Under the pieces are notes generated by a model. That model was not told the DNA's origin, ran no database searches, and was given only the letters and a program-made list of their open reading frames with translations. A stretch of DNA of 64,000 nt, taken from Candidatus Palauibacter sp. (lineage in GTDB: Bacteria; Gemmatimonadota; Gemmatimonadetes; Palauibacterales; Palauibacteraceae). The stretch is from the NCBI RefSeq assembly GCF_965208055.1, contig NZ_CBDBNY010000004.1, positions 2,880,185 to 2,944,184 on the forward strand, in the 5' to 3' direction. Below are positions 2,050 to 21,184 of this stretch, in pieces (within the stretch, counting starts at the first letter, position 1; each line of letters begins with the position of its first letter). Made by a program: the position numbers and the translations under genes.

Positions 2050-4394
2050 GGCACGAGGCGGGGTCTTGCCATGTTCTTGAGCAGGAAGAGTCCGTCCCCG
2101 GTTCCCGTCACGGCGATCGTTCCGCTCTCGAAGTAGGGGTAGTTGCTCCACGATGCGCCGCCCTGGTAGGGCGATGTGTCGAAGAAGCCGATCTCGACCG
2201 GGTTCTCGGGGTCCGAGATGTCCAGGACGCGGAAGCCCGCGGAGTAGTTCGACTGGTACATGAGATCGCCGACGATGTAGAGGTTGTGGTCGGTGGCGGT
2301 CGTCTCCGCGATGTATTCCGTGACGAGGATCGGATCGTCGAGGTCCGTCACATCCCACACCAGCGTGCGCGTCCCCTCCACGAGGCCCTGGGGCTCGTCG
2401 CCCTCGTCGTTCATGTAGAAGTAGCGGTGGTCGTCGGTCAGCCAGCCCTGGTGCGCGTAGGCGACGTTCGGATAGTCGATCGTGGCGAGGCCGACCGGCG
2501 CATTCTTGTCGCTCACGTCGGCGATGTTGAACGCCGTCTCGTTCGAGCCGAGGCAGATCTCCTTGCCCGCGTGCTCGGTGTCGGGGCCGCGGTAGGTCAC
2601 GCACTGCGCGTCGTGTACGTACCCCGTGCCGCGGCGTCCCGTCCCCTCCTGCGCGAAGCAGCCGGCGAAGACGGGCTGGGCCGGATCCTCGAGATCGATC
2701 ATGTGCAGGCCGCCGCCGCAGGTCTCGCCTCCGCCGCTGTTCCCGACGGCATAGGCGAAACCGGTCTCCTCGTTGATGACGATGTTGTGGGCCGAGTGAA
2801 TCCCGTCGTAGAGGAACGTCTCCTCGAACGTCACGGGCTCCGCGCCCACGTCGCGCAGTTGCCGCAGGTCGAACACCTGCACGCCGTGCTCCAGGGCCGC
2901 GTCCGCGACGATGTAGGCGTGGTCGCGATACACCTTGATGTCGCGCCAGATCATGTGTCGCGAACCTTCGGTGGCCGGCAGGTCGCCGAGGAAGCGCGGG
3001 TGATAGGGGTCGCTGACGTCGACGAACGATGTGCCGTCCGTACGCCCGACGATCGCGATCTCCCGCCCCGTCTCCGGATCGGTCCAGCCCCAGATGTCGT
3101 TGACGCGCGTGGCGCGGGTGCCGCCGAGGTCCTTGATCGGCATGAACGCGGTGATGTTCACGTCCCGGCACTCGAAGACGTCCGCCTGCCCCTCGGCGCA
3201 CTCGATCTCTTCGCCGGCGATGGCGGGGAGGCCGCGGTAGTCGTTGACGAGGGTGCCGCCCTCTTCCCAGGCACCGGTGGCGGACCGCTCGTAGACGACG
3301 GCGCCGCCGGCGCGGGAGTCGACTCCCGTCGCGCCGATGACGAGGTGGTCGCCGGATCGCGCGGCCGCCCCGGCGAAGCCGGAGCGCTCGCCGAGCGGAG
3401 AGCGCAGGAGAATGGAAGCCTCGCGCCACTGCCCCTCGGCATCGCGCCGGTAGGCATACAGGGTGCCGGCGCCCATGAAGCTGCCCGGCGCCCCAATGAG
3501 GATGTCGTCGCCATCGAATCCGATGGAGGAGCCGAACTGCGCGTTGGGTTCGGGCAGGAGCGGGCCGAGCCGCGCCTCCATGGTCCAGCCGTCGGCGCCC
3601 CGCGCAAAGGCGAAGACCGCCCCGCCGCTCTCCCTCAGCGTCGGGGCGCCCACCAGCGCGAAGCCGTCGCGCACGGCGAGCGAGGCGCCGAACCCGCTCC
3701 GCTCCTGGAGCGGCGGCGTTTCCAGCATCCCGGCCGCCGTCCACGCCCCCGAACGATCGCGCTCGAAGGCATGCACTGCGGGTGGCGCGTCATCGGCCTC
3801 CCGGGTGCCGACGAGCAGCGTTTCTCCGTCGAGGGCCAGCGCCGCGCCGAACCCCTCGGTCGCCACGCCCTCCGTCGGCCGCAGCGCCGCGCCTGCGGAC
3901 GCGGTCCCGTCGGGGCCCGGGACATAGGAGAACACGGCCCCTCGTCCGTCGTCCGCTCCGGGGGAAGACACGATCGCGGCGCCCCCGGTCAGGGCGATGG
4001 CGCTCCCGAACGCCGCGGCGCCCTCCGGCGCCCCGAGCCGGGCCACCTGCTCCCAGCCGCCCGCCCCATCGGACCGGAACACGTAGACCGCGCCGGCCCC
4101 GTCCGCTTCGAGCGGCGCGCCCGCCCACAGCCAGTCCCCCTGAGTCGCGATCGCCCGCCCGAACCCGTCCGGGACGCGCACCTCGCCGGAAACCGTGATC
4201 TGCCCCGTCTCGGCCCAGCCCGAGCCCGTGCGGCCGAAGACCCACACGATGCCGGACATCGTGCCGTTGCCCGCTTCGCCGACCAGCACCTGGTCGCCGC
4301 TCACGGCAAGCGCACCGCCGAACTGCTGCGCGCCGGCCACCGCGGGGCTCGCCAACACCAATCCCGCCGCCAAGAAAAGGATTCGCCGATTCAT
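2046..4394 (-). CDS. Secreted two-propeller protein: N-terminal FG-GAP repeats fused to a C-terminal LVIVD-repeat (choice-of-anchor-B-like) domain.
   Basis: The real start is MNRRILFLAAGLVLASPAVAGAQQ (signal peptide), about 108 codons inside the 890-aa ORF. There are repeated FGxAxAxxGDxLxxGAP...GAVYVF units. The C-terminus has six D[IVL]S[DN]PxNP motifs and is homologous to the 33685 and 35255 genes. Confidence 0.7.
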   Translation of the reverse strand: MNRRILFLAAGLVLASPAVAGAQQFGGALAVSGDQVLVGEAGNGTMSGIVWVFGRTGSGWAETGQITVSGEVRVPDGFGRAIATQGDWLWAGAPLEADGAGAVYVFRSDGAGGWEQVARLGAPEGAAAFGSAIALTGGAAIVSSPGADDGRGAVFSYVPGPDGTASAGAALRPTEGVATEGFGAALALDGETLLVGTREADDAPPAVHAFERDRSGAWTAAGMLETPPLQERSGFGASLAVRDGFALVGAPTLRESGGAVFAFARGADGWTMEARLGPLLPEPNAQFGSSIGFDGDDILIGAPGSFMGAGTLYAYRRDAEGQWREASILLRSPLGERSGFAGAAARSGDHLVIGATGVDSRAGGAVVYERSATGAWEEGGTLVNDYRGLPAIAGEEIECAEGQADVFECRDVNITAFMPIKDLGGTRATRVNDIWGWTDPETGREIAIVGRTDGTSFVDVSDPYHPRFLGDLPATEGSRHMIWRDIKVYRDHAYIVADAALEHGVQVFDLRQLRDVGAEPVTFEETFLYDGIHSAHNIVINEETGFAYAVGNSGGGETCGGGLHMIDLEDPAQPVFAGCFAQEGTGRRGTGYVHDAQCVTYRGPDTEHAGKEICLGSNETAFNIADVSDKNAPVGLATIDYPNVAYAHQGWLTDDHRYFYMNDEGDEPQGLVEGTRTLVWDVTDLDDPILVTEYIAETTATDHNLYIVGDLMYQSNYSAGFRVLDISDPENPVEIGFFDTSPYQGGASWSNYPYFESGTIAVTGTGDGLFLLKNMARPRLVP

Positions 4395-4587
4395 GAGATA
4401 CCTCTCCCGGAGTTCCGTCCCGTCACACCGTCGTGTCACGCGTCCCGTCGCCGATGACACGCATGCAAGCTGCGTTCCCACCGGCCCGACACGCCAGCGC
4501 CCACGCCGATCCCGATGGTTTCCTTCCCCCCATTCCCGCGTGTACGTTGCAAATCTGCACATATCCCGCTTTCGGCAGGAGGTCATC

Positions 4588-6669
4588 ATGTATCGCGCCG
4601 CCCGCTTCGTCTCCGCGAGCCTTCCTCTTCTCCTCTTCGTCGGCCTCTTCGCCGGTCCGGCACCGGTCTCGGCCCAGAACGGCGACGGGACGAAGACCCT
4701 TTCCCTCGACATGTACATGGACTGGGAACGGGTCTCGAACCCCCAGATCTCCCCGGACGGCCGCCACGTCGTCTACACGCGCGGCTGGATCGACCAGATC
4801 AACGACCGCTGGGAGTCCACGCTGTACATCATGAACGCCGACGGCACCCGCAAGCGGGAGCTGATCGAAGGGTCCGGCGCGATCTGGTCTCCGGACGGCA
4901 CCCGCATCGCCTACACCGCGTCGGGTGAGCCGGAGGGCTCGCAGATCTTCGTGCGCTGGATGGACGCGGAGGGGGCGAGGACCCAGATCACGCGGGTCGA
5001 GCATTCCCCCGGCAGCCTGCGCTGGTCGCCGGACGGCACGCACATCGCCTTCACCATGCTGGTGGAGGACGAGGAGAGCTGGCCGATCGACCTGCCGAGC
5101 CGCCCGGATGGCGCGAAGTGGACGGAAGGCCCGAAGATCGTCACCCGCATGGACTATCGTCAGGACCGCCGCGGGTACGTCGACCAGGGCCACTCCCACG
5201 TCTTCGTGGTCCCCGCCGACGGCGGCACGCCGCGCCAGCTCACCGATGGGATGTGGAACCACGGCAACCCGCAGTGGAGCCCGGACGGGAGCGAGATCTA
5301 CTTCTCATCGCTGCGGGAGGAGGACTCCGAGTACAACTGGCGCGAGTCCGAGATCTACGCGGTGGACGTGGCCTCGGGCGCGATCCGGCAGCTTACGACG
5401 CGCCACGGGCCGGACGGCGGCGCCTATCCCTCGCCCGACGGCAGCCTCATCGCCTACGCGGGACAGGACTGGAACGACGACACGTACCGCAACTCCCACC
5501 TCTACGTGATGAACCCGGACGGTTCGGGCGTGCGGCAGATCTCCGGCGACTTCGACCGTGGTCTGCGCGGGAGCCCGCAGCTCATGTGGGCCCCGGACGG
5601 GAGCGGCGTCTACTTCAACGTGAACCGTGAAGGCACGCGGCACCTGCACTTCGCATCCGTGGACGGCGGCGTGACGCAGGTCACGACCGGCAACCACCTC
5701 CTGAGCCTGAGTTCGTTCACCGAAGACGGGGATGCGGTCGGCACGTTGACCACGCCGCACGGCCCCGGCGACGTGGTGTCGTTCGATCTCGACGACGGCG
5801 GCAACCTCATGCCGCTTACGGATGTGAACGCGGATGTGCTGGCGGGGGTCACGCTCGGCGAGGTCGAGGAGATCTGGTACAAGTCGGTGAACGACTGGGA
5901 TATCCAGGGCTGGATCGTGAAGCCGCCCGACTTCGACCCGTCGAGGAAGTACCCGCTCATCCTGTCGATCCACGGCGGGCCGCACGGCATGTACAACACC
6001 GGCTTCAACTTCGGCTGGCAGGAGCACGCCGCGAACGGCTACGTCGTCGTCTACACCAACCCCCGCGGCAGTTCCGGGTACGGGACGGACTTCGGGAACG
6101 CGATCAAGAACGCCTATCCGTCGCAGGATTTCGACGACCTGATGGCCGGCGTCGACGAGGTCGTGGCGCGGGGATACATCGACGAGGACAACATGTTCGT
6201 CTACGGCTGCTCCGGCGGCGGCGTGCTCACCTCATGGGTCGTGGGCCACACGGACCGCTTCCGCGCCGCCTCGGCGAACTGCCCGGTCACGAACTGGCTC
6301 TCCTTCGTCGGGACGACGGACGGACCCGGCTGGTACCGCAACTTCGAGCACTTCCCGTGGGACGACCCCTCGGAGCACCTGCGCCGCTCGCCGCTCATGT
6401 ACGTGGGCAACGTGACGACGCCGACGATGCTGATGACGGGGGAGATGGACCTGCGGACGCCGATGCCCCAGACGGAGGAATACTACCAGGCGCTCAAGAT
6501 GGAGCGGGTGCCGACGGCGATGATCCGCTTCCGCAACGAGTGGCACGGGACGAGCAGCACGCCGTCGAACTTCCTGCGCACGCAGCTCTTCCTGCGCACC
6601 TGGTTCGAGCGCTTCGGGACGCACGACGACGGCGACACGCGCGCCGTATCGGACGACCAAAGCTCCTGA
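4588..6669 (+). CDS. S9 family serine peptidase (prolyl oligopeptidase/acylaminoacyl peptidase type) with an N-terminal PD40/TolB-like propeller.
   Basis: Start MYRAARFVS... with a signal peptide and an AGGAGG-like RBS. SPDG repeats are present. The catalytic-Ser motif is GCSGGG (GxSxGG). A C-terminal His region is present. Confidence 0.8.
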   Translation: MYRAARFVSASLPLLLFVGLFAGPAPVSAQNGDGTKTLSLDMYMDWERVSNPQISPDGRHVVYTRGWIDQINDRWESTLYIMNADGTRKRELIEGSGAIWSPDGTRIAYTASGEPEGSQIFVRWMDAEGARTQITRVEHSPGSLRWSPDGTHIAFTMLVEDEESWPIDLPSRPDGAKWTEGPKIVTRMDYRQDRRGYVDQGHSHVFVVPADGGTPRQLTDGMWNHGNPQWSPDGSEIYFSSLREEDSEYNWRESEIYAVDVASGAIRQLTTRHGPDGGAYPSPDGSLIAYAGQDWNDDTYRNSHLYVMNPDGSGVRQISGDFDRGLRGSPQLMWAPDGSGVYFNVNREGTRHLHFASVDGGVTQVTTGNHLLSLSSFTEDGDAVGTLTTPHGPGDVVSFDLDDGGNLMPLTDVNADVLAGVTLGEVEEIWYKSVNDWDIQGWIVKPPDFDPSRKYPLILSIHGGPHGMYNTGFNFGWQEHAANGYVVVYTNPRGSSGYGTDFGNAIKNAYPSQDFDDLMAGVDEVVARGYIDEDNMFVYGCSGGGVLTSWVVGHTDRFRAASANCPVTNWLSFVGTTDGPGWYRNFEHFPWDDPSEHLRRSPLMYVGNVTTPTMLMTGEMDLRTPMPQTEEYYQALKMERVPTAMIRFRNEWHGTSSTPSNFLRTQLFLRTWFERFGTHDDGDTRAVSDDQSS

Positions 6670-6959: not shown

Positions 6960-9635
6960 CTATCGCCCTGGTCCCAGCAGGACGGCGTTCATGAACAGGA
7001 GTTGCGTCGCCTCCGCGTAGGCGCGGTAGTTCGGGTCCTCGGCGAAAGCCACGATCTGGCCGCGCCCCACGGGCTGGTGGATGAGGAACGCCTTGTTCGC
7101 CAGTTGCGGACGCGATTCCTCCCACACGATCCCGCTCAGGACGAGGCTCTCGAGGTCGGCGTAGCGGCCGACGTTCGTGCCCTCGTCGAGGGTGATGGGA
7201 CGGAAGACGCGGGAGCCCTCGACGAGGACGCCGATCTCGCCGTCCGTGCCGGCGGCGAGCCAGTGTTCCGTGTCGAGCCGCGTGCGCAGGATCGCGCCGG
7301 GCACGCCCTCCGGCGATTCGTCCTCCGGGGAGATCGCATCGAGGTAGTCGATCGGCTGCTCGGGCGTGCCGGGCTCCGGCGGGTCGTCGCCCTCGGCGCG
7401 GCCGCCCCGGCGCTCCGGCTCGGTGGCGAGGAGCCCGGCCCGCGAGGCCCAGCGCGAGGACTCGGCCATCGTGATCAGCGTGCCGCCGTCCCGCATCCAG
7501 GCCCGCAGACGATCCAGCAGCCCGTCTCCCACGACACCGCCGTAGTTGCCGCTCGGGAAGACGACGACGTCGTAGTCCGCCAGCCGTGCCCGGCCGAGGC
7601 TCGAGGCGCGCACAGCTGTCGTGCGCTGCCCGTAGCGCCGTTCGAGGACGTAACGGGCCCAGCCCACGGAATAGCCCCGGCCGGGGGCGTCGTAGACGAG
7701 GAGCACGCGCGGCTCGCGCAGCGCCCGGACGCTGCGGCTGCCGAGCGACATGCCCTCGCGCACGTACGCGTCGTCGATCGGGACGACTTCGGCGCGGTGC
7801 CGGGCGGCGATGCCGGCCAGGCGTTGTCGCAGATTGGGGCCGTTCTCGGCCGCCCGGACGATGGCGGTGCCGACGCCGAAGCGGCGGCCGTCCAGCGTGA
7901 ACTCCGCGCCCGCGGCCCGGATACGGAGGCCTTCGCGCAGCGCTTCGGCGACCGCCGCGGCCCCGTTCGTGCCCCACGGGACCAGGTAACCGACGAGCGC
8001 TTCGGGCAGGGGCGCCGCCGAGCCGCCGCCCCCGCCGCCGACTCCCCGGCCGCCGCCCTCGCCACCGCCGTTCACCTCCGGGCGCGCGGCGGTCTCGCTC
8101 GCGGTCAACGGCGCGCCGCGCGCCCCCGTCGGGGCGGTCTCGATCGCCTCCACGTCCCACAGCAGCGGCTGGCTCCACGCCGTCAGGTCGTAGATCTCGT
8201 CCGGCTGCCGGTTCGCCCGACGCTCGACCTGCCGCCGCACGAAATCCTCCTCCATCGGCACGTGCGCGTCGAGGAGGTTGCGGATGAAGCGGTGCGCGGG
8301 CTGCGCGAGCGGCACGATGAAGCTCGAACCGGCGGGTAGCGTCCGGCCTCCGACCGTCACCGGCCCGGCGGCGCGAAACACTTCCATCCCGTTCTCGACG
8401 AGCATGAGGGCGAGCCGCTCCGCCATGCCCGGATCGTGCGCGGAATGGAGCACGATCTCGGCCGGGCCCCGCTCCCCGAGCGCGATCCCTTCACGCAGGA
8501 ACGCCACGTAGTCCCGCAGGATCCGGTCCCGGTTCCGGGCAGCCGTGAGAGCGGTCTCGATCGCCGCCGTGAAGTGGTGCAGCACGCCGTCGCCGTACGT
8601 GAGCAGGTCGTCATCCGATTGCCGCAGCCGGAGTCCCCCGGCGCCCGCCTGCTCGTACGTCATCCCCAGCGCCCCGTGCCCCATCGGCCACATGTCCACG
8701 TAGCCGGGATAGAAGAGGTCGTACACGTCCCGGTTGAAGTACGCGAACCCGCGTTCGTCGAAGCGCGCCGCGATCGCCTCGCCGAACACGTCCATGAGCG
8801 CGACCTGCCGCTCCCCGAACCAGGGGTTGGAGGGCGGCGCGGTGGGGGGGAAGAAGTAGGTCGCGTCCCCTCCCATCTCGTGCAGGTCCGCCACGATGTG
8901 GGGACGGAACTCGAGGAAAATGTCCACCTTCCCCCGCGTTTCGACCTGGCTCTGGATGAACAGGTCCCGGTTGAGGTCGAACAGGTAGTGGTTCCCGCGG
9001 CCGCCCGGCCACGGCGGGTCGTGCTCGGCGGAGACCCGGGCCTCGTCCGGCCAGCGCGCCCCCGCGACCGAGTTCTGGTACACGAAGCGGTTCCGCCCGT
9101 CCGGGTTCTCCATGGGGTCGATGAGGACGAGCGACTCCGAGAGGATGAGGTCGACGTCGGGATCCCCGATCGCCGCGAGCAGGTGGTAGGCTTCGGCCAT
9201 CGCGGCGCCGCTGGAACTGATCTCGTCGCCGTGGATCCCGTGCATGAGCGCGGTGACGACCGGGAGTTCGGCCAGCAAGGCCTCGGCCTCCGCATCGGAG
9301 AGGCCGCGCGGGTCGGCGAGCCGCGCGATGCCCGCCTTCACCTCGTCGAGCCGCGCCATGCGCTCCGGCGAGCCGATGACGAGGACGACGAGCTGCCGGC
9401 CCTCCCAACTCTCCGCGTACTGCATGAGACGCGTCCGGTCGGGGGCCGCGGCGGCGAGCGCCTCCATGTAGCGGATCACGTCGTCGGGCGGCGTGACGAC
9501 CTCGCGGAAGCCGTGTCCCGCCACCTCTTCGAGCGTGGGGATGCCGGGGTCGTAGCGCGTTCCGGGTGCGAGTTCCTGCGCCTGGGCGGGCACCTGCAGC
9601 GCGGCGGCGAGCGCGAGCGTGGAAAGCACGGGCAC
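6960..9635 (-). CDS. M14 family zinc carboxypeptidase, large secreted form.
   Basis: Signal peptide MPVLSTLALAAALQVPAQAQ. An HGIHGDE (HxxE) zinc motif is present. Total length is 891 aa with a long C-terminal extension. Confidence 0.7.
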   Translation of the reverse strand: MPVLSTLALAAALQVPAQAQELAPGTRYDPGIPTLEEVAGHGFREVVTPPDDVIRYMEALAAAAPDRTRLMQYAESWEGRQLVVLVIGSPERMARLDEVKAGIARLADPRGLSDAEAEALLAELPVVTALMHGIHGDEISSSGAAMAEAYHLLAAIGDPDVDLILSESLVLIDPMENPDGRNRFVYQNSVAGARWPDEARVSAEHDPPWPGGRGNHYLFDLNRDLFIQSQVETRGKVDIFLEFRPHIVADLHEMGGDATYFFPPTAPPSNPWFGERQVALMDVFGEAIAARFDERGFAYFNRDVYDLFYPGYVDMWPMGHGALGMTYEQAGAGGLRLRQSDDDLLTYGDGVLHHFTAAIETALTAARNRDRILRDYVAFLREGIALGERGPAEIVLHSAHDPGMAERLALMLVENGMEVFRAAGPVTVGGRTLPAGSSFIVPLAQPAHRFIRNLLDAHVPMEEDFVRRQVERRANRQPDEIYDLTAWSQPLLWDVEAIETAPTGARGAPLTASETAARPEVNGGGEGGGRGVGGGGGGSAAPLPEALVGYLVPWGTNGAAAVAEALREGLRIRAAGAEFTLDGRRFGVGTAIVRAAENGPNLRQRLAGIAARHRAEVVPIDDAYVREGMSLGSRSVRALREPRVLLVYDAPGRGYSVGWARYVLERRYGQRTTAVRASSLGRARLADYDVVVFPSGNYGGVVGDGLLDRLRAWMRDGGTLITMAESSRWASRAGLLATEPERRGGRAEGDDPPEPGTPEQPIDYLDAISPEDESPEGVPGAILRTRLDTEHWLAAGTDGEIGVLVEGSRVFRPITLDEGTNVGRYADLESLVLSGIVWEESRPQLANKAFLIHQPVGRGQIVAFAEDPNYRAYAEATQLLFMNAVLLGPGR

Positions 9636-13382: not shown

Positions 13383-13606
13383 TCCCGTCGCGCGCCGCGG
13401 CCCCTTCGCCGCCCCCCTCAGCGGCGATGCCCCTTCGCCGTCCGGAGTCTGACCCGACCCGCCGTATCCGTAGAGTCCGCATGGGTTTCCGACGATTCCT
13501 CCGCGCTCCAAGCGCAACAGGTCATCGACGCCGCGAACGTAGTTTGGCCCTCGGGCGGGATATACATGGTAGGGGGGTACGTTTCGCGTGGCCCAAGGAG
13601 GTTCGG

Positions 13607-14071
13607 ATGATCGAGATCCTGGCGGACTCGCCAGACGACGGGGCGCTCATCGCAAGAGCCATCGGCAGCGACACACGGGTCGTGAACAATTCCGTTCGGT
13701 TCGCGAACGGCGGCGCCCACGCCGAGTGTCGGATCCTGGGTTGCCGCCATCCGATTCGGGCGGAGCGAATCGAACTCCTGCGAAAGATCGAGCGTGACGC
13801 GCCGTGGGTTCCCGTCATCCTCGTGACGGATCACACGCCCGACCTTGCTCACCGACTGCGCGATATCAGGGTGGCGGCCGTCGTCTGGTACGCCGACGTT
13901 CGAACCGAACTCAAGCCCCGGATCGTCGCCGTCAAGCGATCGGTCCCGCTCCTGCGCCTGGCGAAACAGGTGGAGGAGGCGAAACTGCCTCCTGCCCTTC
14001 GATCCGGACTGGCGTACAGATACTGGAACTCTCGACGACCCCGGTGGTATGGCGGCGCGCTGTGCCGGTGA
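13607..14071 (+). CDS. Hypothetical protein with a receiver-like (pseudo-receiver) fold and no obvious phospho-acceptor Asp.
   Basis: Strong AAGGAGG RBS 7 nt upstream. The product MIEILADSPDDG...ECRILGC...PVILVTDH...AVVWYAD resembles the CheY beta1/beta3/beta4/beta5 layout. First gene of the lower-GC island. Confidence 0.4.
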   Translation: MIEILADSPDDGALIARAIGSDTRVVNNSVRFANGGAHAECRILGCRHPIRAERIELLRKIERDAPWVPVILVTDHTPDLAHRLRDIRVAAVVWYADVRTELKPRIVAVKRSVPLLRLAKQVEEAKLPPALRSGLAYRYWNSRRPRWYGGALCR

Positions 14072-14144
14072 TCTTCTTGGCAACCGACCGACGAGGAGCC
14101 GCCGCACCGCAGACGCAACGGGACTTCATCGCGAGGAGGGACGG

Positions 14145-14669
14145 ATGATTGCCGCCCACGCGAGCATCTGGGCACCCGGTAAGTCGCAGTGCCTGAAGGC
14201 TACGTTGTCGGCAGCTGTTCTGGTCTCGCTGATCGGATGCCACGGGGCGTTCGCGCAGGGTGAAGCTGGCACGTGGGAGGAGCGGGCAAGCGACATCATC
14301 GCCGCGGCGGATCGGCGAGTCGAAGACGCAACGACTGTATATTGGGTCATATCGCAGTCGGCATCAACAATTTGCTCCGATTACCTCTATTACGTGCGCT
14401 ACTTCGCATCGCGTACTACAGATTATAAACATGTGATCATTACGGATTTCGATGAGAATACTCTCCGCAGCCAACTCAGAAAAGCTCGTATAGATGCGAC
14501 GGTTATCGCCGTGCCCCATGTGCTTCCCTCCAACGCGATGCTAGTCGTCGCAGCGGGTACCGGCATGCAGCCCTTGGCGGTCCGATTTGTTGCTGGCACC
14601 GACGCCTCGCGGCACCCCAACCGCGTGTCGGAGATGGTCGCCAATCTTCTCGGCGAGGTCGCTGAATGA
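14145..14669 (+). CDS. Hypothetical lipoprotein.
   Basis: GAGGAGG RBS. The lipobox LVSLIGC follows MIAAHASIWAPGKSQCLKATLSAAV. This is a markedly AT-richer stretch (14300-14500). Its stop overlaps the next start (ATGA). Confidence 0.45.
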   Translation: MIAAHASIWAPGKSQCLKATLSAAVLVSLIGCHGAFAQGEAGTWEERASDIIAAADRRVEDATTVYWVISQSASTICSDYLYYVRYFASRTTDYKHVIITDFDENTLRSQLRKARIDATVIAVPHVLPSNAMLVVAAGTGMQPLAVRFVAGTDASRHPNRVSEMVANLLGEVAE

Positions 14670-15781
14670 TGCGGCTCGTGAGCCGCCCCGGCGAGCTCAT
14701 CTCGGGTGCGGCCATCGTCGTGTTGGCATTGGCGTTGGCGTCGACCCGCGGTGCGGATGGACACACAGAACCTGCGGGAGAAACGACAGCTGGTTGTCGC
14801 GCAGACGTACCAGCAATCGGAACTACGTTCTTCGAGGCGCGTCGTGTCGATCTGCAGGATCTGGACACGGCGAGGCTGGTGACGCCGAGCGTCATCGATA
14901 TCTCGCCATCGGGCAACCACATTCTCATAGGAGACCGCGACGATTACGACGTGAAACTGTTTGATCGCGGCGGCCGCTTGATTAGCGTCATCGCAACGCG
15001 CGGGGAGCAACCCGGACAGGTGTTTATTCTGGATGGCGCGGCCTTTCGCAATGATTCAATGGTCATGATCGCGGACGCCGGGCGGATGCAGTTGATGGAA
15101 TTCGATCTGCAGGGCAAGCTGGTCGCCGAAACGCATCTTCCGGTACGACCGATCACCTCCGTCCAAGTGTTGGACCAAAGCGTGCTCGTCGGAGGAAGGT
15201 CTCCTCCCACGCTCGCGGACCCAAGAGCCAGGGGGGTTCATGTGCTGGATTCCGAGGGGAGTATTTCCCAGTCCCTCGGCTCCCAACCCTTGGCATCGGT
15301 CGGCGGCGTGTCAAGATACTTGGCCGCGACCGCGCCGTTCTTCCATGTCACAAGTGGCGGCCGTGACTCCATCGCGGTGGCTTGGCGCCTGACGAACAAC
15401 GTCGAGGTTTTCGATCTGGTCTCTGGAGGATCCCGAACATTCCGCATCGGAGGGGGACCAGGGTACGTGGACCCCGACACGCTACTTCACCGCCTTGGCC
15501 CCGAGGGGCAGTCGGATGTGTTGAACCGATCAAGTCCCATCGTCGGTCTCTTCACGGCTGCGGGTTACATCATCGTCGCATATTTTTCGCCGGCAACGGG
15601 GAGCGACAACCTGCGTTATCTTGTTTATGATCGATCCGGTACGCTCGTGGAATTTATCGACGATCCACCACTCGTACTAGGAGTGCATGCGGACTCCTTG
15701 CTCGCGATCGGACGATCATCGGAGAGCGAGAATGGACGGTACGCGGTCCGCATTTTCGCGCCGTGTGTAACCAAGTCATAA
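14666..15781 (+). CDS. Secreted NHL-repeat 6-bladed beta-propeller protein.
   Basis: Signal peptide MMRLVSRPGELISGAAIVVLALALAS. NHL-like units include DYDVKLFDRGGRLISVIATRGEQPGQV. Paralogous in fold to the 16297 gene. Confidence 0.55.
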   Translation: MMRLVSRPGELISGAAIVVLALALASTRGADGHTEPAGETTAGCRADVPAIGTTFFEARRVDLQDLDTARLVTPSVIDISPSGNHILIGDRDDYDVKLFDRGGRLISVIATRGEQPGQVFILDGAAFRNDSMVMIADAGRMQLMEFDLQGKLVAETHLPVRPITSVQVLDQSVLVGGRSPPTLADPRARGVHVLDSEGSISQSLGSQPLASVGGVSRYLAATAPFFHVTSGGRDSIAVAWRLTNNVEVFDLVSGGSRTFRIGGGPGYVDPDTLLHRLGPEGQSDVLNRSSPIVGLFTAAGYIIVAYFSPATGSDNLRYLVYDRSGTLVEFIDDPPLVLGVHADSLLAIGRSSESENGRYAVRIFAPCVTKS

Positions 15782-15792
15782 GATCAAGGAGC

Positions 15793-16020
15793 ATGACTGT
15801 GAAGAAACGACACTCGAAGTTGCGTCTGAGGCTCGCACTCGTGCTGATCGCGGCGTTGGCCGGAACTGCCGGAGCATCCCCCACACCTGCCAGTCAGGAC
15901 GCGATGGAAGTCTTGTTGTGCAAGTACGACGCGGAGGAAGATGCGCAGCGGTGCCGCGTTGTCGAAGTGCGGTGCGCGCCAAACTGCTTTACGGGTTTCT
16001 GCTGTATGTATATAGATTAG
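15793..16020 (+). CDS. Secreted cysteine-rich mini-protein 1 (precursor 75 aa; predicted mature ~48 aa with 6 Cys).
   Basis: AAGGA RBS 3 nt before the ATG. Signal peptide MTVKKRHSKLRLRLALVLIAALAGTAGA. Mature part ...CKYDAEEDAQRCRVVEVRCAPNCFTGFCCMYID has a C-x6-C-x3-C-x4-CC C-terminus. Confidence 0.5.
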   Translation: MTVKKRHSKLRLRLALVLIAALAGTAGASPTPASQDAMEVLLCKYDAEEDAQRCRVVEVRCAPNCFTGFCCMYID

Positions 16021-16066
16021 CTTCAGCACTGATCGATTTCGACGCCACCAGGAAGAAAGGTTTACA

Positions 16067-16315
16067 GTGATGTCAGACCAACGGAGGCCACGCCGCTCGA
16101 TCTGGACGTCCGTGCTAACTGCGGTCGTGGTGGTCGGCGCGCTCTGTGCTCCGCAACTCGGCAAGCCGGGGCATGCGCAAGAAGATGATGGGGGGCCACC
16201 CGACGATTCGTACCAAGCGCTCAAGGCCATCCACTGCGACCTTGATGGCTGTGAGGTTCTCGGCTACTACTGCTTGCGAAGGTGCTGGGCGGCTCCATGC
16301 TGTGTCGACGCGTAG
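16067..16315 (+). CDS. Secreted cysteine-rich mini-protein 2 (paralog; 82 aa precursor with 6 Cys in the mature part).
   Basis: AGGAAGAAAGG RBS. GTG/ATG start at 16067/16070. Signal peptide ...VLTAVVVVGALCAPQLGKPGHAQ. Mature part ...HCDLDGCEVLGYYCLRRCWAAPCCVDA shares the C-x6-C-x3-C-x4-CC framework with peptide 1. Confidence 0.5.
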   Translation: MMSDQRRPRRSIWTSVLTAVVVVGALCAPQLGKPGHAQEDDGGPPDDSYQALKAIHCDLDGCEVLGYYCLRRCWAAPCCVDA

Positions 16316-17469
16316 GCTCTTCGTTCCTTCTCGACGAAACTAACCTGTTGCGGACACTGACCCTCGTGGCGGCAGGGGCCACGGCCGCGTCCGGGTGTGG
16401 GATGCCTGCGAACTCGGACGAGGATCGGGAGCTGGCGTGGACTCTGACGCCGGAACTCCGGCTGGGATCACAGTCCGGTCGCGACGCGCTGCATCGCGTG
16501 TCAGCCCGATCGACGACGGTGGGACCTGACGGGTCGTTCTACGTTCTCGACAAGGGCAACTACCGGGTCGTGAAGTTCGATGCGGAGGGGGGATATGTCC
16601 GCGAGTTCGGATCGAGAGGCGAGGGGCGGAGCGAGTTCGCCTACCCGATGGCCCTGCTCGGACCTCGGGGAGATACGTTGAGCATTCTGGACGGTCCTTC
16701 GCTGTCTCACAAGCTCTTCACAACCGCGGGAGACTTCCTGGAGGCGCGGCGTATTCCCCAATCCACAGCCAGTGAAGACCAGCGGGATACGTCGGACGGC
16801 ATTGTTCTCGTGGAGATATTTGGCTATCGCAGTCGCAGCGCGGAGGTGACGGACCGCCTCGTATTGATTCGTGATCGCGGCGACACCATCACGCTGGCCG
16901 ACCAAACCAGGGCGTCATCGGGTACATACACCATTCCGGTGTGCAACTACACCATTCCGGCAGAGCCCCTATTCAGGCATGTCCTGTGGTGGGATGCGGC
17001 CGGTGATCTGATTGCCGCGACCCAGAACGCCGACTACTCGGTGCATGTGTTCAACCGTGGCCGGTTGGTGCAGGAATTGAAGCGGGCGATTCCGCCCGCC
17101 CCGATCACGGAGGTGGTGGCGCGCGCCGAAGTTGGGGACGGATCTACATGGAGCGTGGCGGGCCGCGCCTGCACGGCTGATCCCGAGGATGAACTGGATG
17201 CTCGGGGGTTTGAGGACTTCCGGCAGGTGATCACCGGGATCCGCGTGGACCCGACCGGTTGGATCTGGGTCCGGCGCCACGCCGCGCCGCCGGGCGAGGA
17301 GGACCGACACAGAATCGATGTCTTCGATTCGGCCGGGGGGTTTCACGGCACGCTCCCGGCAGACACGCCGTGGCCGGGCATGTTCACGCCGGACGGTCGA
17401 GTCGTGCGCCGCGAATTGGACGAATTCGACGTGGAGTATCTCGTCGTGTACCGCATCGACAGAAACTAG
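16297..17469 (+). CDS. NHL-repeat beta-propeller lipoprotein.
   Basis: The start is either ATG 16297 or GTG 16282 and overlaps the 3' end of peptide 2. Lipobox-like LVAAGATAASGC. NHL units include YRVVKFDAEGGYVREFGSRGEGRSEF. Confidence 0.55.
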   Translation: MLCRRVGSSFLLDETNLLRTLTLVAAGATAASGCGMPANSDEDRELAWTLTPELRLGSQSGRDALHRVSARSTTVGPDGSFYVLDKGNYRVVKFDAEGGYVREFGSRGEGRSEFAYPMALLGPRGDTLSILDGPSLSHKLFTTAGDFLEARRIPQSTASEDQRDTSDGIVLVEIFGYRSRSAEVTDRLVLIRDRGDTITLADQTRASSGTYTIPVCNYTIPAEPLFRHVLWWDAAGDLIAATQNADYSVHVFNRGRLVQELKRAIPPAPITEVVARAEVGDGSTWSVAGRACTADPEDELDARGFEDFRQVITGIRVDPTGWIWVRRHAAPPGEEDRHRIDVFDSAGGFHGTLPADTPWPGMFTPDGRVVRRELDEFDVEYLVVYRIDRN

Positions 17470-17632
17470 GGCGAGCCTCGATTCCGTCCGGATCATTTCG
17501 AGCGAAAATCCAGTGCAGATGGTTCTGTGACCCATGATCACCTGAGGGCGTCTCGTATCCGGGTACACGCAGGTCAACCAGGGGGAGGTTGGAACGAAAC
17601 GGCGGACATCTGTTGCCGACGGATCTGATGCG

Positions 17633-18727
17633 ATGCCAGTCGAGGTGCAACCTCGTCCTGATCTGGACGCGGTAGCTCTGCGTAACGCGTCAGGACGGCT
17701 GGCCTGCGCGATCGTTGCGCTTCTCGGATTCGGGAACGGGGTGCCGGGGCTTGCCGGTCAGGAGCCGGATTGCGGTGGGCGGGCCGTCATGCGTGTGATG
17801 GTGCTGGACGAGTCCGGGATGATGCCCATTCCGGGGGCGACGGTGGTGCTTCGCTGGACGGACACGGACGCCGTTCGGAGGCCGATGCGGCAAGAGGTCG
17901 ACCTCCAGGGCAGTGTGCGGATCTGCGCCCCAGGCGACGCCAGACGCGCGACGCTGTGGGCGGAATTGGGCGATATCTCGAGCAGGCAGCGGTCGGTCGA
18001 ACTTGAGCCCGGCATGTCGCGGGATGTGGAACTGCGACTGCTGCTGGAGTCGGCAGCGACCGGGCGCTTGATCGGACTGGTGCAAGACGCGCGGACGGAC
18101 CGTCCGGTGGCGGCGGTCGCGGTGTCGCTCGGGGGGCGCACGGTGGCCGAGACCAACCGGAGCGGCCAGTTCATCCTCAGCGGCGTGCCGGTGGGGATCC
18201 ACGAACTCTCCGTGCGGCGGCTTGGCTACGCGCCGCTCGTACACCCGGTCGTGGTGTCCAAGGGCGTCACCACGGACCTGGAGCTTGGTCTGGTTCCCGA
18301 CCCGCTGGAGATGGAGCCCCTGGTGGCGATGGCGACGCGGTCGCGCCGCCTGGAGGTCAAGGGCTTCTACGAGCGCAATTACTGGGGCGAACGCATTGGC
18401 GGCAGCACGTTCTACACGGCGAAGGACATCGAGCGCCGGCGTCCGATCCGCATCTCACACATGATCGCCGAAGAACCGTCGATCCGACTCGACTGCTCCG
18501 GTCGTCGCTGCAGGCTGGTGAGCACGCGGGCGTCGCTGGGGTTCCGGGGACGCCCCTGCGGGGTGAGCGTCTACCTCGATGGCATCTCGGTGGGCCGCGA
18601 CCTGGATGAATTCGTGAAACCCCTCGAGATCGCGGGCGTCGAAATCTACAGGGGAGCGGCGTCGCTGGCGGCGGAGTTCGGGGGGTCGGGTTCACGCTGC
18701 GGAGTCGTCGCGGTCTGGACCAAGTAG
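17633..18727 (+). CDS. CarboxypepD_reg-like domain plus TonB-dependent-receptor plug domain protein with no beta-barrel.
   Basis: 364 aa with an N-terminal hydrophobic leader. GRLIGLVQDARTDRPVAAVAVSLGG..SGVPVG is a carboxypeptidase-regulatory-like fold. The C-terminal ...IEIYRGAASLAAEFGGSGSRCGVVAVWTK is a typical plug-domain ending. Confidence 0.55.
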   Translation: MPVEVQPRPDLDAVALRNASGRLACAIVALLGFGNGVPGLAGQEPDCGGRAVMRVMVLDESGMMPIPGATVVLRWTDTDAVRRPMRQEVDLQGSVRICAPGDARRATLWAELGDISSRQRSVELEPGMSRDVELRLLLESAATGRLIGLVQDARTDRPVAAVAVSLGGRTVAETNRSGQFILSGVPVGIHELSVRRLGYAPLVHPVVVSKGVTTDLELGLVPDPLEMEPLVAMATRSRRLEVKGFYERNYWGERIGGSTFYTAKDIERRRPIRISHMIAEEPSIRLDCSGRRCRLVSTRASLGFRGRPCGVSVYLDGISVGRDLDEFVKPLEIAGVEIYRGAASLAAEFGGSGSRCGVVAVWTK

Positions 18728-18771: not shown

Positions 18772-19875
18772 GTGCCCCGGATCCCAGTCTTCGGGATGGT
18801 GAGCGGGAAATTCTCGAAGCTGGATGACAGATCGGTGGCGCCAGGACTGGCGTGGAGCCTCGTTGCCGCGTTCGGTCTGGCCGGCGGTGCCGGGACGCTC
18901 TCGGCCCAGGATTCGGATTGCGGCGATCGCGCGAGCTTGCGGGTCGCGGTCCTGAACGACGACGACATGGCTCCGGTCCGGGGCGCGACGGCGGTCGTTC
19001 AGTGGACCGACACTCAACGCGCGAGGCGGCCGGTGCGCGAGGTTGTCGGAGCCGGACGCCTCGTCCTCTGCGCTCCGCGGGATGCGACACGGGCCACGCT
19101 GTGGGCGGAGTACGGGAACTTCTCGAGCGAAGAGGCGGTCGTCGCCATCGTCGCCGGGATGTCCCACGACATCAGACTGGCGCTGCGCTCGGGGCCGATC
19201 CGAACCGGCAGGCTGATCGGCCAGGTGCATGACGCGATCACGGAGGATCCGGTGGTCGCGGCCTCGGTGTTCGTTCCCGACCGTCTGCGGGTGGCCGAGA
19301 CCGATCGCCGGGGACGGTTCGTCCTGAGCGGCGTTCCGGCCGGTGTGCGGGACCTCAACGTGCGGCATCTCGGGTACGCTCCGCTTTCCCATGTGGTCGA
19401 GGTCTCCCCCGGCCTCACCACGGAGGTGGAGATCGGCATGGTCCCCGATCCGGTGGAGATGGAGCCGATCGTGGCGACGGCGACGAGGTCCCGCCGGCTG
19501 GAGGTCAAGGGCTTCTACGAACGCCGGCACTGGAGCGAACTCGTCGGCACGGGCACCTTCTACACGGCGGAGGACATCGATCGCCGCCGGCCCGTGGAGA
19601 TCTCGCACATGATCGCGGACGAGTCGGGGATCCGGCTCCAGTGCAACGCCCGGCGTACCGACTGCAGACTGGTGAACACGAGGCTGTCGTCGGGGGTCAC
19701 GGGCGCCTGTTCGCTGAACTTCTATATCGATGGCCTGCCGACGAGGGGGATCGCACTGGACGACGTCGTCAGACCGAGCGAGATCGCAGGCATCGAGATA
19801 TACAAGGGGCTGGCATCGGGTCCGGCGGAGTTCCCGCCTTCCCGGTGCGGCCTCGTCGCGGTCTGGACGAAATAG
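18772..19875 (+). CDS. Tandem paralog of the 17633 gene (CarboxypepD_reg + plug only).
   Basis: 367 aa with the same architecture and roughly 55-60 % identity by eye (GRLIGQVHDAITEDPVVAASV..., ...IEIYKGLASGPAEFPPSRCGLVAVWTK). The exact start is uncertain (MPRIP, MVSGK or a later site). Confidence 0.55.
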   Translation: MPRIPVFGMVSGKFSKLDDRSVAPGLAWSLVAAFGLAGGAGTLSAQDSDCGDRASLRVAVLNDDDMAPVRGATAVVQWTDTQRARRPVREVVGAGRLVLCAPRDATRATLWAEYGNFSSEEAVVAIVAGMSHDIRLALRSGPIRTGRLIGQVHDAITEDPVVAASVFVPDRLRVAETDRRGRFVLSGVPAGVRDLNVRHLGYAPLSHVVEVSPGLTTEVEIGMVPDPVEMEPIVATATRSRRLEVKGFYERRHWSELVGTGTFYTAEDIDRRRPVEISHMIADESGIRLQCNARRTDCRLVNTRLSSGVTGACSLNFYIDGLPTRGIALDDVVRPSEIAGIEIYKGLASGPAEFPPSRCGLVAVWTK

Positions 19876-19925
19876 CGTCCGGAAACAAGGAACTCCGGAA
19901 ACAAACAACATTGGAGGGTGACAAC

Positions 19926-20528
19926 ATGAAGCGAAGCAGCGCGTGGTACCTCGCCGTTTTATTGGTCCTGGGATGTGGCGGAGGATCCGAGGCCGGCTCC
20001 GAGGCGGAGATGGCGGAGACGGCCGAAGCCATGAACGAAATGGCGGATGCGGCGCTGGCCTGCGTCGTCATGGGCGACGCGGAGGGCAGGCAGAGTCCGC
20101 TCCAGGAATTGAGCTTTTCGTACGACGGGGGTGAGGGTCTCCTCTGCTACGGCGCGCCCTCGGCCCGCGAGCGCGTCGTCATGGGGGACCTGGTGCCCTA
20201 CGGCGAGGTCTGGCGCCTGGGGGCGAACGAGGCGACGGCGCTCCACCTGTCGGCCGCCGCCACGGTAGGCGGTGTCGCGCTCGGGCCCGGGAGCTACTCG
20301 CTGTACGCCACGCCCGGCGAGACGGAATGGGAGTTCCACCTGAACTCGGAGTACGACCGCTGGGGGATCCCGATCGATGCCGCGGTCCAGAGCACCGAGG
20401 TGGGCAGCTTCATGGCGACGCCCTCGGCCACCGCCGAAATGGTGGAGACGATGACCTTCGAGCAGGTGGACGGCGCACTCCGCTTCTCCTGGGAGAACAC
20501 GCAGGTCGACATCCCGCTCGGCATGTAG
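19926..20528 (+). CDS. DUF2911-like lipoprotein.
   Basis: GGAGGG RBS. Lipobox LVLGC follows MKRSSAWYLAV. YGEVWRLGANEATALHLS...EWEFHLNSEYDRWG matches the DUF2911 pattern. Confidence 0.6.
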   Translation: MKRSSAWYLAVLLVLGCGGGSEAGSEAEMAETAEAMNEMADAALACVVMGDAEGRQSPLQELSFSYDGGEGLLCYGAPSARERVVMGDLVPYGEVWRLGANEATALHLSAAATVGGVALGPGSYSLYATPGETEWEFHLNSEYDRWGIPIDAAVQSTEVGSFMATPSATAEMVETMTFEQVDGALRFSWENTQVDIPLGM

Positions 20529-20552
20529 CCCGACGCATTCAACCCGGCGGAT

Positions 20553-20592
20553 GCAGCTGACGAGCCCCGCGAGGGGCGGGCGCGTCAGCTGC
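20553..20592. terminator. GC-rich inverted repeat between the convergent DUF2911 and GNAT genes (candidate bidirectional terminator).
   Basis: gcagctgacg ... cgtcagctgc, a 10-bp stem with a GC-rich loop. It overlaps the GNAT stop codon. Confidence 0.3.
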
Positions 20593-21184
20593 GCCGGTGG
20601 CGCCAGAGGCGGGTCTCGAGGTGTCGCTTGATCCCCGGCCACTCGTGGAGGAGGACGGAGTACATCGCGTCGTCGCGCACGCTCCCGTCGCGCCGCAGGG
20701 AGTGATTGCGGAGGACGCCGTCCTTCTTCGCGCCGAGCGCCTCGATGGCCCGCTGCGAGCGCAGGTTGAGGCCGTCCGTGCGGAGCCCGACGACTCCGCA
20801 CCCCACGGTCTCGAAGGCGTGCGTCATGAGGAGCAGCTTGCACGCGGTGTTGACGTGTGTGCGCTGATGGCTCGCGCCGTACCAGGTGTAGCCGATCTCG
20901 ACCCGGTCCACGTGCGGCAGGATGTCGTGGTAGCGGGTGGACCCGATGATGGCGCCCGTCTCCAGGAGCCGGACGACCCAGGGCAGCATGTGGCCGGCGG
21001 TCCGGCCGTCGAGCGCCGTCTCGATGTAGGTCGTCACTTCGTCCGGGGCCGGGACGAAGGTGAAGAAGAGGTTCCACAGCTCCCCGTCCGCGGCGGCCTC
21101 GGCGAGCGCGTCGGCGTGCTCGAGGCCCATGGGTTCGAGACGGACGCCGCGGCCCTCGAGCGTCACGGGCTGAGGTTCAATCAT
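20585..21184 (-). CDS. GNAT family N-acetyltransferase (RimJ/RimL-like).
   Basis: Start MIEPQPVTLEGRGVRLEP. The region ...IGYTWYGASHQRTHVNTACKLLLMTHAFE... is a typical GNAT core. Confidence 0.7.
   Translation of the reverse strand: MIEPQPVTLEGRGVRLEPMGLEHADALAEAAADGELWNLFFTFVPAPDEVTTYIETALDGRTAGHMLPWVVRLLETGAIIGSTRYHDILPHVDRVEIGYTWYGASHQRTHVNTACKLLLMTHAFETVGCGVVGLRTDGLNLRSQRAIEALGAKKDGVLRNHSLRRDGSVRDDAMYSVLLHEWPGIKRHLETRLWRHRRS

Follow-up and report, generated by a model that had tools for sequence, protein, structure and literature searches.

Two predicted secreted six-cysteine mini-proteins of Candidatus Palauibacter belong to a rare family encoded between paired NHL propellers

Introduction

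What do two small cysteine-rich peptides do between two beta-propellers, and are their open reading frames (ORFs) genes at all? The question is raised by a stretch of DNA from Candidatus Palauibacter sp. (Gemmatimonadota; contig NZ_CBDBNY010000004.1, positions 2,880,185 to 2,944,184), which is called the window in this text. The window is 64 kb long with a GC content of 68%, and its numbering is used for all coordinates of the locus. It carries a cassette of five genes, which encode a small lipoprotein (lipo174), a first NHL propeller (propeller A), two six-cysteine peptides (pep1 and pep2) and a second NHL propeller (propeller B). The original prediction suggested that the peptides are secreted, knot-like toxins or bacteriocin-like peptides, and that the propellers could be their maturation, chaperone or immunity partners. 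The computational analysis reported here showed that both peptide genes are genuine and that their pairing with the propellers is kept in distant lineages, and it leads us to a tentative proposal for the role of the mini-proteins in the cell envelope.

Results

Selection on the two small ORFs

Orthologues of the small ORFs were recovered in at least six related contigs, which are designated here by L numbers, and their peptides by P numbers. Those of pep1 (P0001-P0003) are 95, 79 and 70% identical to it and those of pep2 (P0004 and P0005) are 98 and 73% identical, with further copies of pep2 in L002 and L004. The ratio of nonsynonymous to synonymous substitution rates (dN/dS) was 0.19-0.36 for pep1 and 0.19-0.32 for pep2, and the corresponding values were 0.19-0.27 for propeller A and 0.13-0.19 for propeller B. 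Two pairs were uninformative, namely the L003-L006 pair of pep1, which gave 0.61 on three substitutions in total, and one pair of pep2 sequences without synonymous changes. When the ORFs of the 64-kb window were screened for a signal peptide together with at least four cysteines in the last 45 residues, pep1 and pep2 were the sole ORFs to pass, and by chance 0.00 occurrences of the back-translated core motif of the peptides would be expected in the window. We conclude that pep1 and pep2 are genuine genes, as the original prediction had held, and that they are under purifying selection.

Two observations could be taken to favour spurious ORFs, that is, chance products of high-GC DNA. Gene callers missed both peptide ORFs in the metagenome-assembled genome (MAG) GCA_022826685.1 (L004, 11134-11660) and in the Logan contig L005 (9057-9583), and an antisense ORF of 148 aa overlaps both peptide genes. 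The antisense ORF is considered to be an artefact because purifying selection acts in the frames of pep1 and pep2. This selection in frame, the invariance of the six cysteines across distant lineages, the retention of the position between propellers A and B where the propellers are 26-35% identical, and the chance expectation of the core motif leave practically no room for a spurious origin. Uncalled copies of the peptide genes were also recovered in L004/L005 and in L006. Because of such omissions, which affect a deposited MAG as well as a Logan contig, searches of protein databases under-count the family.

The original prediction had placed the start of pep1 at 15793. The gene stands, but the start is more likely the GTG at 15799, which gives a precursor of 73 aa, because the Shine-Dalgarno sequence AAGGAG ends 7 nucleotides (nt) before this GTG and only 1 nt before the ATG at 15793, and because all orthologues start at the equivalent codon. 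The mature part of pep1 is predicted to be about 47 aa long (C-x10-C-x6-C-x3-C-x4-CC and a tail of four residues, net charge -4) and that of pep2 about 45 aa long (C-x4-C-x6-C-x3-C-x4-CC and a tail of three residues, net charge -6). The six mature cysteines, the shared C-x6-C-x3-C-x4-CC framework, the two tails and the first spacing of four residues in pep2 had all been described correctly, whereas the first spacing of pep1 had been given as eleven residues and was measured as ten. A seventh cysteine of the pep2 precursor sits in the signal peptide and is not conserved (it is a tyrosine in L002). The mature peptides of the pep2 type start with a glutamine.

Signal peptides were scored by a simple heuristic, which looks for a positive n-region, a hydrophobic core of 11 residues and small residues at -3 and -1. 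By this heuristic, pep1, pep2 and nine further family members appear to carry the Sec-type signal that had been proposed for the first two: the 11 precursors have an n-region charge of 0 to +6, a Kyte-Doolittle value of 2.3-3.4 for the core, and AXA-like sites. Tat export of pep2 was considered and rejected, because the RR pair of its precursor is not conserved among orthologues, being missing in L002 and L004.

The peptide family

When 1.84 billion representative proteins were searched with a profile built from the mature regions, only seven clusters were returned, of which two are those of the window and five (P0016-P0020) are new. The paralogy proposed for pep1 and pep2 was confirmed (BLASTP E 0.001), and the two are bridged by these five clusters, which, like the peptide of L160, are intermediate in sequence between them and share the motif DA[ILM]..I.C-x4-6-C-x-V-x-G-x-x-C-x-P-x-C-x-T-G-F-C-C. 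All six cysteines are invariant in 11-16 aligned family sequences, and the family framework consists of successive loops of 4-10, 6, 3 and 4 residues (9 for the last of them in one lineage), the CC doublet and a tail of 3-9 residues. The N-terminal half of pep2 (CDLDGCEV.G) is identical to P0017 at 12 of 20 positions and the C-terminal half of pep1 (C.P.C.TGFCC) at 8 of 12, while the first loop of pep1 is expanded. From these alignments, the peptide gene appears to have been duplicated in the window lineage, with pep1 keeping the ancestral C-terminal half and pep2 the ancestral N-terminal half.

We also scanned DNA independently of gene calling, using the degenerate pattern C-x-P-x-C-x-[TS]-G-F-C-C. 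These scans gave 87 genome, 103 metagenome and 1 viral stretches, nearly all of which were chance matches in the wrong context, and the genuine matches were L053, L058, L160 and L183 only. In its proper context, the core motif was found in two of 185,579 species genomes (OY762926.1 and contig VYDD01000485, from a MAG labelled Gammaproteobacteria), in one lineage among the JGI metagenomes (L160/L183) and in no viral contig. The scans are blind to pep2-type and more divergent members, so that the rarity of the family is somewhat overstated by them.

The framework had been described as matching nothing known, and this was borne out. Eleven family members gave no match to Pfam, nor was there any to NCBIfam, and the peptide profile gave 0 matches to PDB sequences at E values up to 10. 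PADLOC and PHROGs returned no significant match for the five cassette proteins or for the AraC-type regulator that precedes them, and a literature search for the peptide family or for its pairing with NHL/DUF5128 propellers found nothing relevant. In the databases and literature searched, the family is rare and undescribed, and so is its pairing with NHL propellers.

Every mature family peptide (n = 16) is anionic, with a net charge of -2 to -10. The family alignment contains no conserved tryptophan and no conserved C-terminal glycine, and the tails after the CC doublet are not conserved in sequence. The AlphaFold2 (AF2) model of the peptide has a confident hairpin made of residues 7-18 and 23-33, with a predicted local distance difference test score (pLDDT) of about 91 for residues 11-30. 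Since Cys15 and Cys26 face each other on opposite strands in this model, the first cysteine pair probably closes the N-terminal hairpin. The knot-like fold that had been suggested was not supported, the model being confident for the N-terminal hairpin only and a Foldseek search of it against the PDB giving nothing below E 2.

The two propellers

The original prediction that both flanking genes encode NHL-type six-bladed propellers was correct. Propeller A matches the Pfam family DUF5128 ("6-bladed beta-propeller") with an E value of 2.9e-5, above the gathering score, and a profile of 10 propeller A sequences matches the NHL domain of TRIM2 in the PDB with an E value of 4.5e-17. Its AF2 model (predicted template modelling score, pTM, 0.72) contains about 24 beta-strands and was matched by Foldseek, at a probability of 1.00, to the NHL propellers of Brat, TRIM2 and Thin and to BF0058 of B. 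fragilis (4raa). Ten homologues of propeller A were found at 51-96% identity, with conserved N- and C-terminal cysteines (C44 and C367) and one invariant histidine (H192); an exact-sequence look-up of propeller A returned no record.

Propeller B matches the Pfam family NHL with an E value of 3e-4, above the gathering score, and its profile matches the NHL domain of Thin in the PDB with an E value of 6.4e-24; PknD is also among its PDB sequence matches. Under the lipobox criterion that we applied (a signal peptide ending in [LVI][ASTVI][GAS]C), the cysteine of its lipobox is residue 34 counted from 16297, and a lipobox-type cysteine is retained in the homologues of L001, L004, L009, L012, L160 and L205. 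Across eight lineages, 57 residues of propeller B are invariant and none of them is a histidine. Each propeller has one conserved pair of cysteines. The paralogy that had been claimed between the two propellers holds at a distance only (BLASTP E 0.03), and by sequence comparison propellers A and B form two separate orthologous groups, both retained across lineages.

Maturation of the peptides by a PAL-like activity of the propellers had also been suggested. The PAL-type NHL enzyme is defined by a zinc-binding histidine triad and by a catalytic tyrosine and arginine in the centre of the propeller. A PAL-type identity was not supported here: because propeller B has no invariant histidine and propeller A has one, the Zn(His)3 site is absent, and PAL (3fvz) matches propeller B at E 0.38 only. 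The nearest structures to the propellers are RNA- or protein-binding NHL domains and exported Bacteroides proteins without assigned function, with no enzymes among them. Propellers A and B are ordinary members of the NHL/DUF5128 superfamily.

Conservation, decay and mobility of the cassette

A profile search for the cysteine framework had been suggested along with the original prediction; the search with the mature regions found homologues, and the linkage to the propellers proved to be kept in distant lineages. In the clade L001-L006, the entire neighbourhood of the cassette is syntenic. The order propeller A, peptide(s), propeller B was found wherever enough DNA was available (L009, L012, L160/L183, L204 and L205), and L053 keeps the order propeller A, peptide up to the end of the contig, which falls at the peptide. 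The identity of propeller A to that of the window is 51-58% in L009 and L012 and 26-29% in L160/L183, L204 and L205, and that of propeller B is 43-44% and 35-36%, respectively. Homologues of propeller B lie directly 3' of the peptide in L001-L006, L009, L012, L160/L183, L204 and L205, at 35-96% identity.

The number of peptides differs between lineages. Most have one, as do L160, L204 and L205 and also L012, where it is of the pep2 type only, and L009 has a pep1-type peptide and a truncated pep2-type peptide. The claim that each peptide is paired with a propeller of its own did not survive this comparison, as most lineages have one peptide between both propellers. For the window and L204, propellers A and B are 29% and 35% identical, respectively, whereas 8 of 12 residues of the C-terminal core of pep1 and 12 of 20 residues of the N-terminal half of pep2 are identical to P0017. 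By these counts, the peptide core appears to be more conserved across lineages than either propeller. Propeller B had also been said to overlap the 3' end of pep2: the tight spacing of the two genes is conserved, but the overlap depends on the start of propeller B (16282, 16297 or 16348) and is not kept in L004, where pep2 and propeller B share a reading frame and a single stop codon stands between them.

Decayed and interrupted copies of the cassette were also found. In L013 (2436-4690), an intact propeller A (72% identity) is followed by a gap of 94 nt where both peptide genes have been lost, and propeller B is spread over three reading frames. In the metagenome contigs L007 (2248-3447) and L008 (3271-4431), an insertion sequence (IS) element with a transposase (HTH_23/29/32) lies inside propeller A. 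In L006 (OY762926.1, 10001-10816), propeller A is shortened to 227 aa and carries a short scar, and pep1, pep2 and propeller B are intact. The joint loss in L013 and the truncation of propeller A in L006, with the peptides and propeller B intact, point to the peptide and propeller B as the tightest pair.

The single-peptide cassette of the JGI metagenome lineage L160/L183 lies between a transposase of the IS256-like (mutator) type and a pair of IS3-type transposases (L160, 2-808 and 5939-7176; L183, 1-1344), an integrase-like fragment flanks the cassette of L012, and the toxin-antitoxin genes HigB and BrnA lie near that of L013. The GC content of the window cassette is 0.61, against 0.70 in the left flank and 0.68 in the right flank. 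Because of the flanking transposases, integrase-like fragment and toxin-antitoxin genes and because of this dip in GC content, we consider the cassette to be mobile accessory DNA. The dip (0.61 against 0.68-0.71 in the flanks) is common to the window (13400-17500), L004 (9480-12805) and L006 (9480-12557), and its presence in three related genomes suggests a foreign origin or a distinct mutational regime.

Other pairs of a cysteine-rich peptide and a propeller were seen in two of these contigs. In L009, a precursor of 85 aa (4057-4314; C-x6-C-x17-C-x4-C-x6-CC and a tail) is encoded 35 nt 5' of a third propeller lipoprotein (4349-5440), and in L011 (2109-3394) a cysteine-rich precursor of 68 aa (2109-2315) is followed by a TolB_like (PF15869) propeller. 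Because of these additional pairs, the association of peptide and propeller may be more general than one family. As to habitat, the SB06xx MAG series, which is the source of one relative, also yields Poribacteria, and this fits a sponge origin for L053; there are hints that some family members come from sponge-associated communities.

Organization of the cassette and its surroundings

The five genes of the cassette are co-directional and occupy 3.3 kb of the window (14145-17469) in the ORF listing (Table 1). The genes for lipo174 and propeller A overlap by 4 nt (ATGA, stop on start), and propeller A and pep1 are separated by 17 nt. The gap between pep1 and pep2 is 46-49 nt, and the start chosen for propeller B decides whether pep2 overlaps it or ends at most 33 nt before it. 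Consensus scans of the cassette for terminators gave no signal above chance. Because the junctions are tight and no terminator signal exceeds chance, an operon would be the simplest reading.

Table 1. Position of the cassette genes and of the preceding regulator remnant in the window
Feature	Position	Strand	Basis or remark
AraC-type regulator remnant	13544..14071	+	receiver-like N-terminal half only
lipo174, 174-aa lipoprotein without known family	14145..14669	+	lipobox LIGC, Cys at residue 32
Propeller A, secreted NHL/DUF5128 6-bladed beta-propeller	14666..15781	+	Pfam, PDB profile, AF2 model
pep1, 73-aa precursor	15799..16020	+	orthologues, dN/dS, Shine-Dalgarno spacing, signal-peptide heuristic
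pep2, 81/82-aa precursor, start GTG 16067 or ATG 16070	16067..16315	+	orthologues, dN/dS, paralogy to pep1
Propeller B, NHL/DUF5128 6-bladed beta-propeller lipoprotein	16297..17469	+	Pfam, PDB profile, lipobox ASGC

Homologues of lipo174 are encoded directly 5' of propeller A in L001, L003, L004, L006, L009, L010, L011 and L204, and they share the conserved motifs C-[SP]-D-[FY]-x-Y-Y-[IV]-R, H-x-[VI]-[VI]-T-D and L-P. A thioredoxin-like fold, by which lipo174 would help to oxidise the peptides, was considered because the single conserved cysteine stands at the start of a predicted helix, in a pattern of strand, C-x-x and helix, and because of a V-P motif; it was unsupported, as searches of lipo174 against Pfam and by profile against the PDB gave no match.

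An AraC-type regulator is found 5' of the module in the window, L001, L006, L011/L012, L053 and L204. That of the window is a remnant, in which the tblastn match covers residues 1-158 of the 287-aa regulator of L053 at 57% identity and then stops. The full-length homologues carry the helix-turn-helix (HTH) domains HTH_AraC/HTH_18, and the HTH half was removed from the window copy by a deletion of 717 bp at 14019/14020 relative to OY762926.1 (L006, 8636-9353). The same deletion junction is present in L003.

The DNA of the window is about 96% identical to the Gemmatimonadota MAG OY762926.1. The neighbours of the cassette encode an Nramp transporter, a MOSC protein, a Na/H antiporter, CarboxypepD_reg/Plug proteins, a DUF2911 protein, a GNAT acetyltransferase and an amidohydrolase, and at 4.5-10 kb upstream of the cassette the window lineage also has genes for a Peptidase_M14 (6960-9635, - strand) and a Peptidase_S9. 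The CarboxypepD_reg/Plug proteins are tandem paralogues of about 365 aa encoded directly 3' of the cassette (17633-18727 and 18772-19875), which combine CarboxypepD_reg with the Plug domain of TonB-dependent receptors and have no beta-barrel; the pair is syntenic in L003, L004 and L006 and absent beside the distant cassettes. The absence of radical-SAM and ABC exporter genes, noted in the original prediction, was confirmed by inspection of the neighbours in the window and in the related loci, and no enzyme that modifies ribosomally synthesised and post-translationally modified peptides (RiPPs), such as radical SAM, YcaO or LanM proteins, is encoded among the neighbours of the window cassette or at the loci of the other lineages. 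A few kb 3' of the cassette, L004 encodes a large protein (19281-21134) that combines Big_2 with several LRR domains. Such eukaryote-like repeat proteins are a typical feature of bacteria that live in association with a host.

Discussion

We tentatively propose, as a possible rather than an established role, that the mini-protein serves two binding-type NHL propellers of the cell envelope as their dedicated ligand or small subunit. The cassette would encode an accessory envelope module in which an AraC-type regulator, where there is one, is followed by the small lipoprotein, propeller A, the six-cysteine peptide or peptides and propeller B. All four structural products would leave the cytoplasm by Sec, propeller B and lipo174 becoming lipid-anchored and propeller A and the peptides remaining soluble. 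In the oxidising periplasm, the six invariant cysteines would form three disulfides, which would lock an acidic mini-protein of about 45 residues; its N-terminal part would be a beta-hairpin closed by Cys1-Cys2, and its C-terminal part a compact C-x3-C-x4-CC unit that ends in a short tail. This mini-protein would be held by both propellers, possibly bridging them, and would be neither a free toxin nor the substrate of an enzyme. Protein-protein contact is preferred to an arms-race weapon because the peptide core outconserves the propellers, because the peptides are acidic and because the relatives of the propellers are binders. Since complementary halves of the ancestral peptide are kept in pep1, which is next to propeller A, and in pep2, which is next to propeller B, one may speculate that each half contacts a different propeller.

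Several results weigh against this proposal. The C-terminal cysteine-rich half of the peptide model has low confidence (pLDDT 62-71), and in the pep2 orthologue of L003 (P0004, 2293-2538, 98% identical) the fourth cysteine is replaced by an arginine (CLRRRW instead of CLRRCW). This substitution, which was seen in the L003 copy alone, could be an error of sequencing or assembly, or a tolerated or inactivating variant. The loss of the HTH half of the regulator makes expression of the window copy uncertain. Finally, the low-GC, IS-associated and patchy distribution of the cassette is also typical of competition or defence cargo.

This last point bears on the role first suggested for the peptides, a secreted antimicrobial or toxin for which the propellers or lipo174 would serve as immunity, chaperone or release factors. 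Such a peptide would be small, Sec-exported and disulfide-rich as these are predicted to be, its gene is duplicated in the window lineage, the membrane-anchored partner encoded beside it suits an immunity layout, and the cassette is accessory and flanked or hit by IS elements and toxin-antitoxin genes. We nevertheless consider a toxin unlikely, although with a real chance of being correct, since all 16 mature peptides are anionic and no diversifying selection was detected: omega lies between 0.2 and 0.35, and the core has hardly changed although the propellers have diverged to 26-35% identity. Moreover, Sec alone reaches only the periplasm of a diderm, the cassette lacks any exporter or lysis gene that would take the peptide across the outer membrane, PADLOC and the Pfam toxin and bacteriocin families gave no match, and two large propellers would be unusual as immunity proteins. 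A peptide signal sensed by the propeller lipoprotein, with an output through the adjacent AraC-type regulator, seems improbable. The regulator, with its receiver-like N-terminal domain, is indeed encoded 5' of several cassettes, and NHL propellers act as extracellular sensor domains elsewhere, PknD being among the PDB matches; but the cassette encodes no membrane-spanning transducer (kinase or anti-sigma factor), the regulator is cytoplasmic without an evident link to the envelope, and the window and L003 have lost its HTH half but have kept intact structural genes.

Two further readings would make the peptide the partner of an enzyme. In the one, which is RiPP-like and which we regard as quite improbable, the propellers would process the peptide, for example by PAL-like chemistry at its C-terminus or by trimming of its tail. 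Six-bladed propellers include PAL and lactonases, PAL (3fvz) matches propeller B, however weakly (E 0.38), the tails after the CC doublet vary from 3 to 9 residues, and the mature pep2-type peptides begin with a glutamine. The missing Zn(His)3 site in either propeller, the non-enzymatic NHL domains that are the best matches in sequence and structure, the lack of a conserved C-terminal glycine and the absence of a recognised RiPP enzyme nearby speak against it. In the other, the peptide would be a tight-binding inhibitor, like the small disulfide-rich inhibitors of carboxypeptidases, whose C-terminal tail blocks the active site of M14 enzymes. The compact cysteine core with its short free tail and the Peptidase_M14 and Peptidase_S9 genes of the window lineage would agree with this, but these genes are not adjacent to the cassette, are on the opposite strand or behind unrelated transporters and are absent at the loci of other lineages; the tails are not conserved, and the conserved partners are propellers and no peptidase, which makes an inhibitor very unlikely.

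The preferred role, a ligand or subunit of the propellers, can be compared with known systems. By sequence, both propellers fall among the NHL, DUF5128 and TolB_like propellers (PF01436, PF17170 and PF15869), and propeller A does so also by its predicted fold. Solved examples include the NHL domains of TRIM2, TRIM71, Brat and Thin, as well as BF0058. Like propellers A and B, BF0058 and the DUF5128 proteins are exported bacterial proteins without an assigned function, and none of these families is known to have a small cysteine-rich partner. In Bacteroidales, small signal-bearing NVEALA proteins (PF14055) may be encoded beside DUF5128/TolB_like propellers, which would be another pairing of this kind and is at most a lead; the family peptides match neither PF14055 nor any other Pfam model. 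The eukaryotic NHL domains are cytoplasmic binders of RNA or protein fused to TRIM modules, whereas the propellers described here are stand-alone proteins with a cysteine pair, one of them lipid-anchored.

The closest functional precedent is offered by the tryptophan tryptophylquinone (TTQ) enzymes methylamine dehydrogenase (MADH) and aromatic amine dehydrogenase, in which a small disulfide-rich light subunit (MauA) sits on a beta-propeller heavy subunit (MauB). The likeness is that of a small exported disulfide-rich polypeptide encoded beside a periplasmic beta-propeller and bound to it. The heavy chain of MADH is, however, a seven-bladed propeller outside the NHL class, and its light chain of about 130 aa has 12 cysteines and a cofactor derived from two tryptophans, whereas the family peptides have no conserved tryptophan, their partners are six-bladed NHL propellers, no mau accessory genes are nearby and the PDB contains no match.

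Among small disulfide-rich peptides, the alpha- and beta-defensins of vertebrates are cationic, about 40 aa long, and have six cysteines with a terminal CC doublet. The family peptides resemble them in being secreted with six cysteines, the last two adjacent, but are anionic, have other loop lengths and showed no match to them in sequence (Pfam, PDB) or fold. Knottins have three disulfides in about 40 residues and a C-C-CC-C-C or C-C-C-C-C-C framework with the CC doublet in the middle, and one of them, the potato carboxypeptidase inhibitor, has a functional C-terminal tail. In the family peptides the doublet is C-terminal, and their model, in which the cysteine-rich half has low confidence, shows a long hairpin without a Foldseek match at E below 2. 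Defensins and, as far as the model shows, knottins share only the number of cysteines with the family. Class II bacteriocins and microcins are likewise small ribosomal peptides, sometimes disulfide-bonded, in accessory cassettes, but they are exported independently of Sec by a dedicated ABC exporter and come with an immunity gene; the family leaders are of the Sec type and not of the double-glycine type, no C39/ABC exporter is encoded nearby, and the peptides are anionic and conserved.

In a bolder version of our proposal, which we consider doubtful, the cassette would specify a new envelope complex in which the halves of an acidic mini-protein clamp a soluble and a lipid-anchored NHL propeller, these halves having been partitioned between pep1 and pep2 after the duplication. 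Such a complex may serve interaction with a host or partner in symbiotic, possibly sponge-associated, Gemmatimonadota and their relatives. The immediate impact of the finding is moderate, the family being rare and its organisms uncultured. Much is known about the disulfide-rich mini-proteins of animals, plants and fungi, but hardly any have been catalogued in bacteria, in part because their genes escape gene callers, and the ligand proposed here would be the first candidate for the large superfamily of exported DUF5128/NHL propellers. The family may also provide peptide engineering with a new scaffold that is stable, acidic and about 45 residues long, and it would be a tractable test case of the way in which propellers and small secreted proteins act together in the envelope of diderms.

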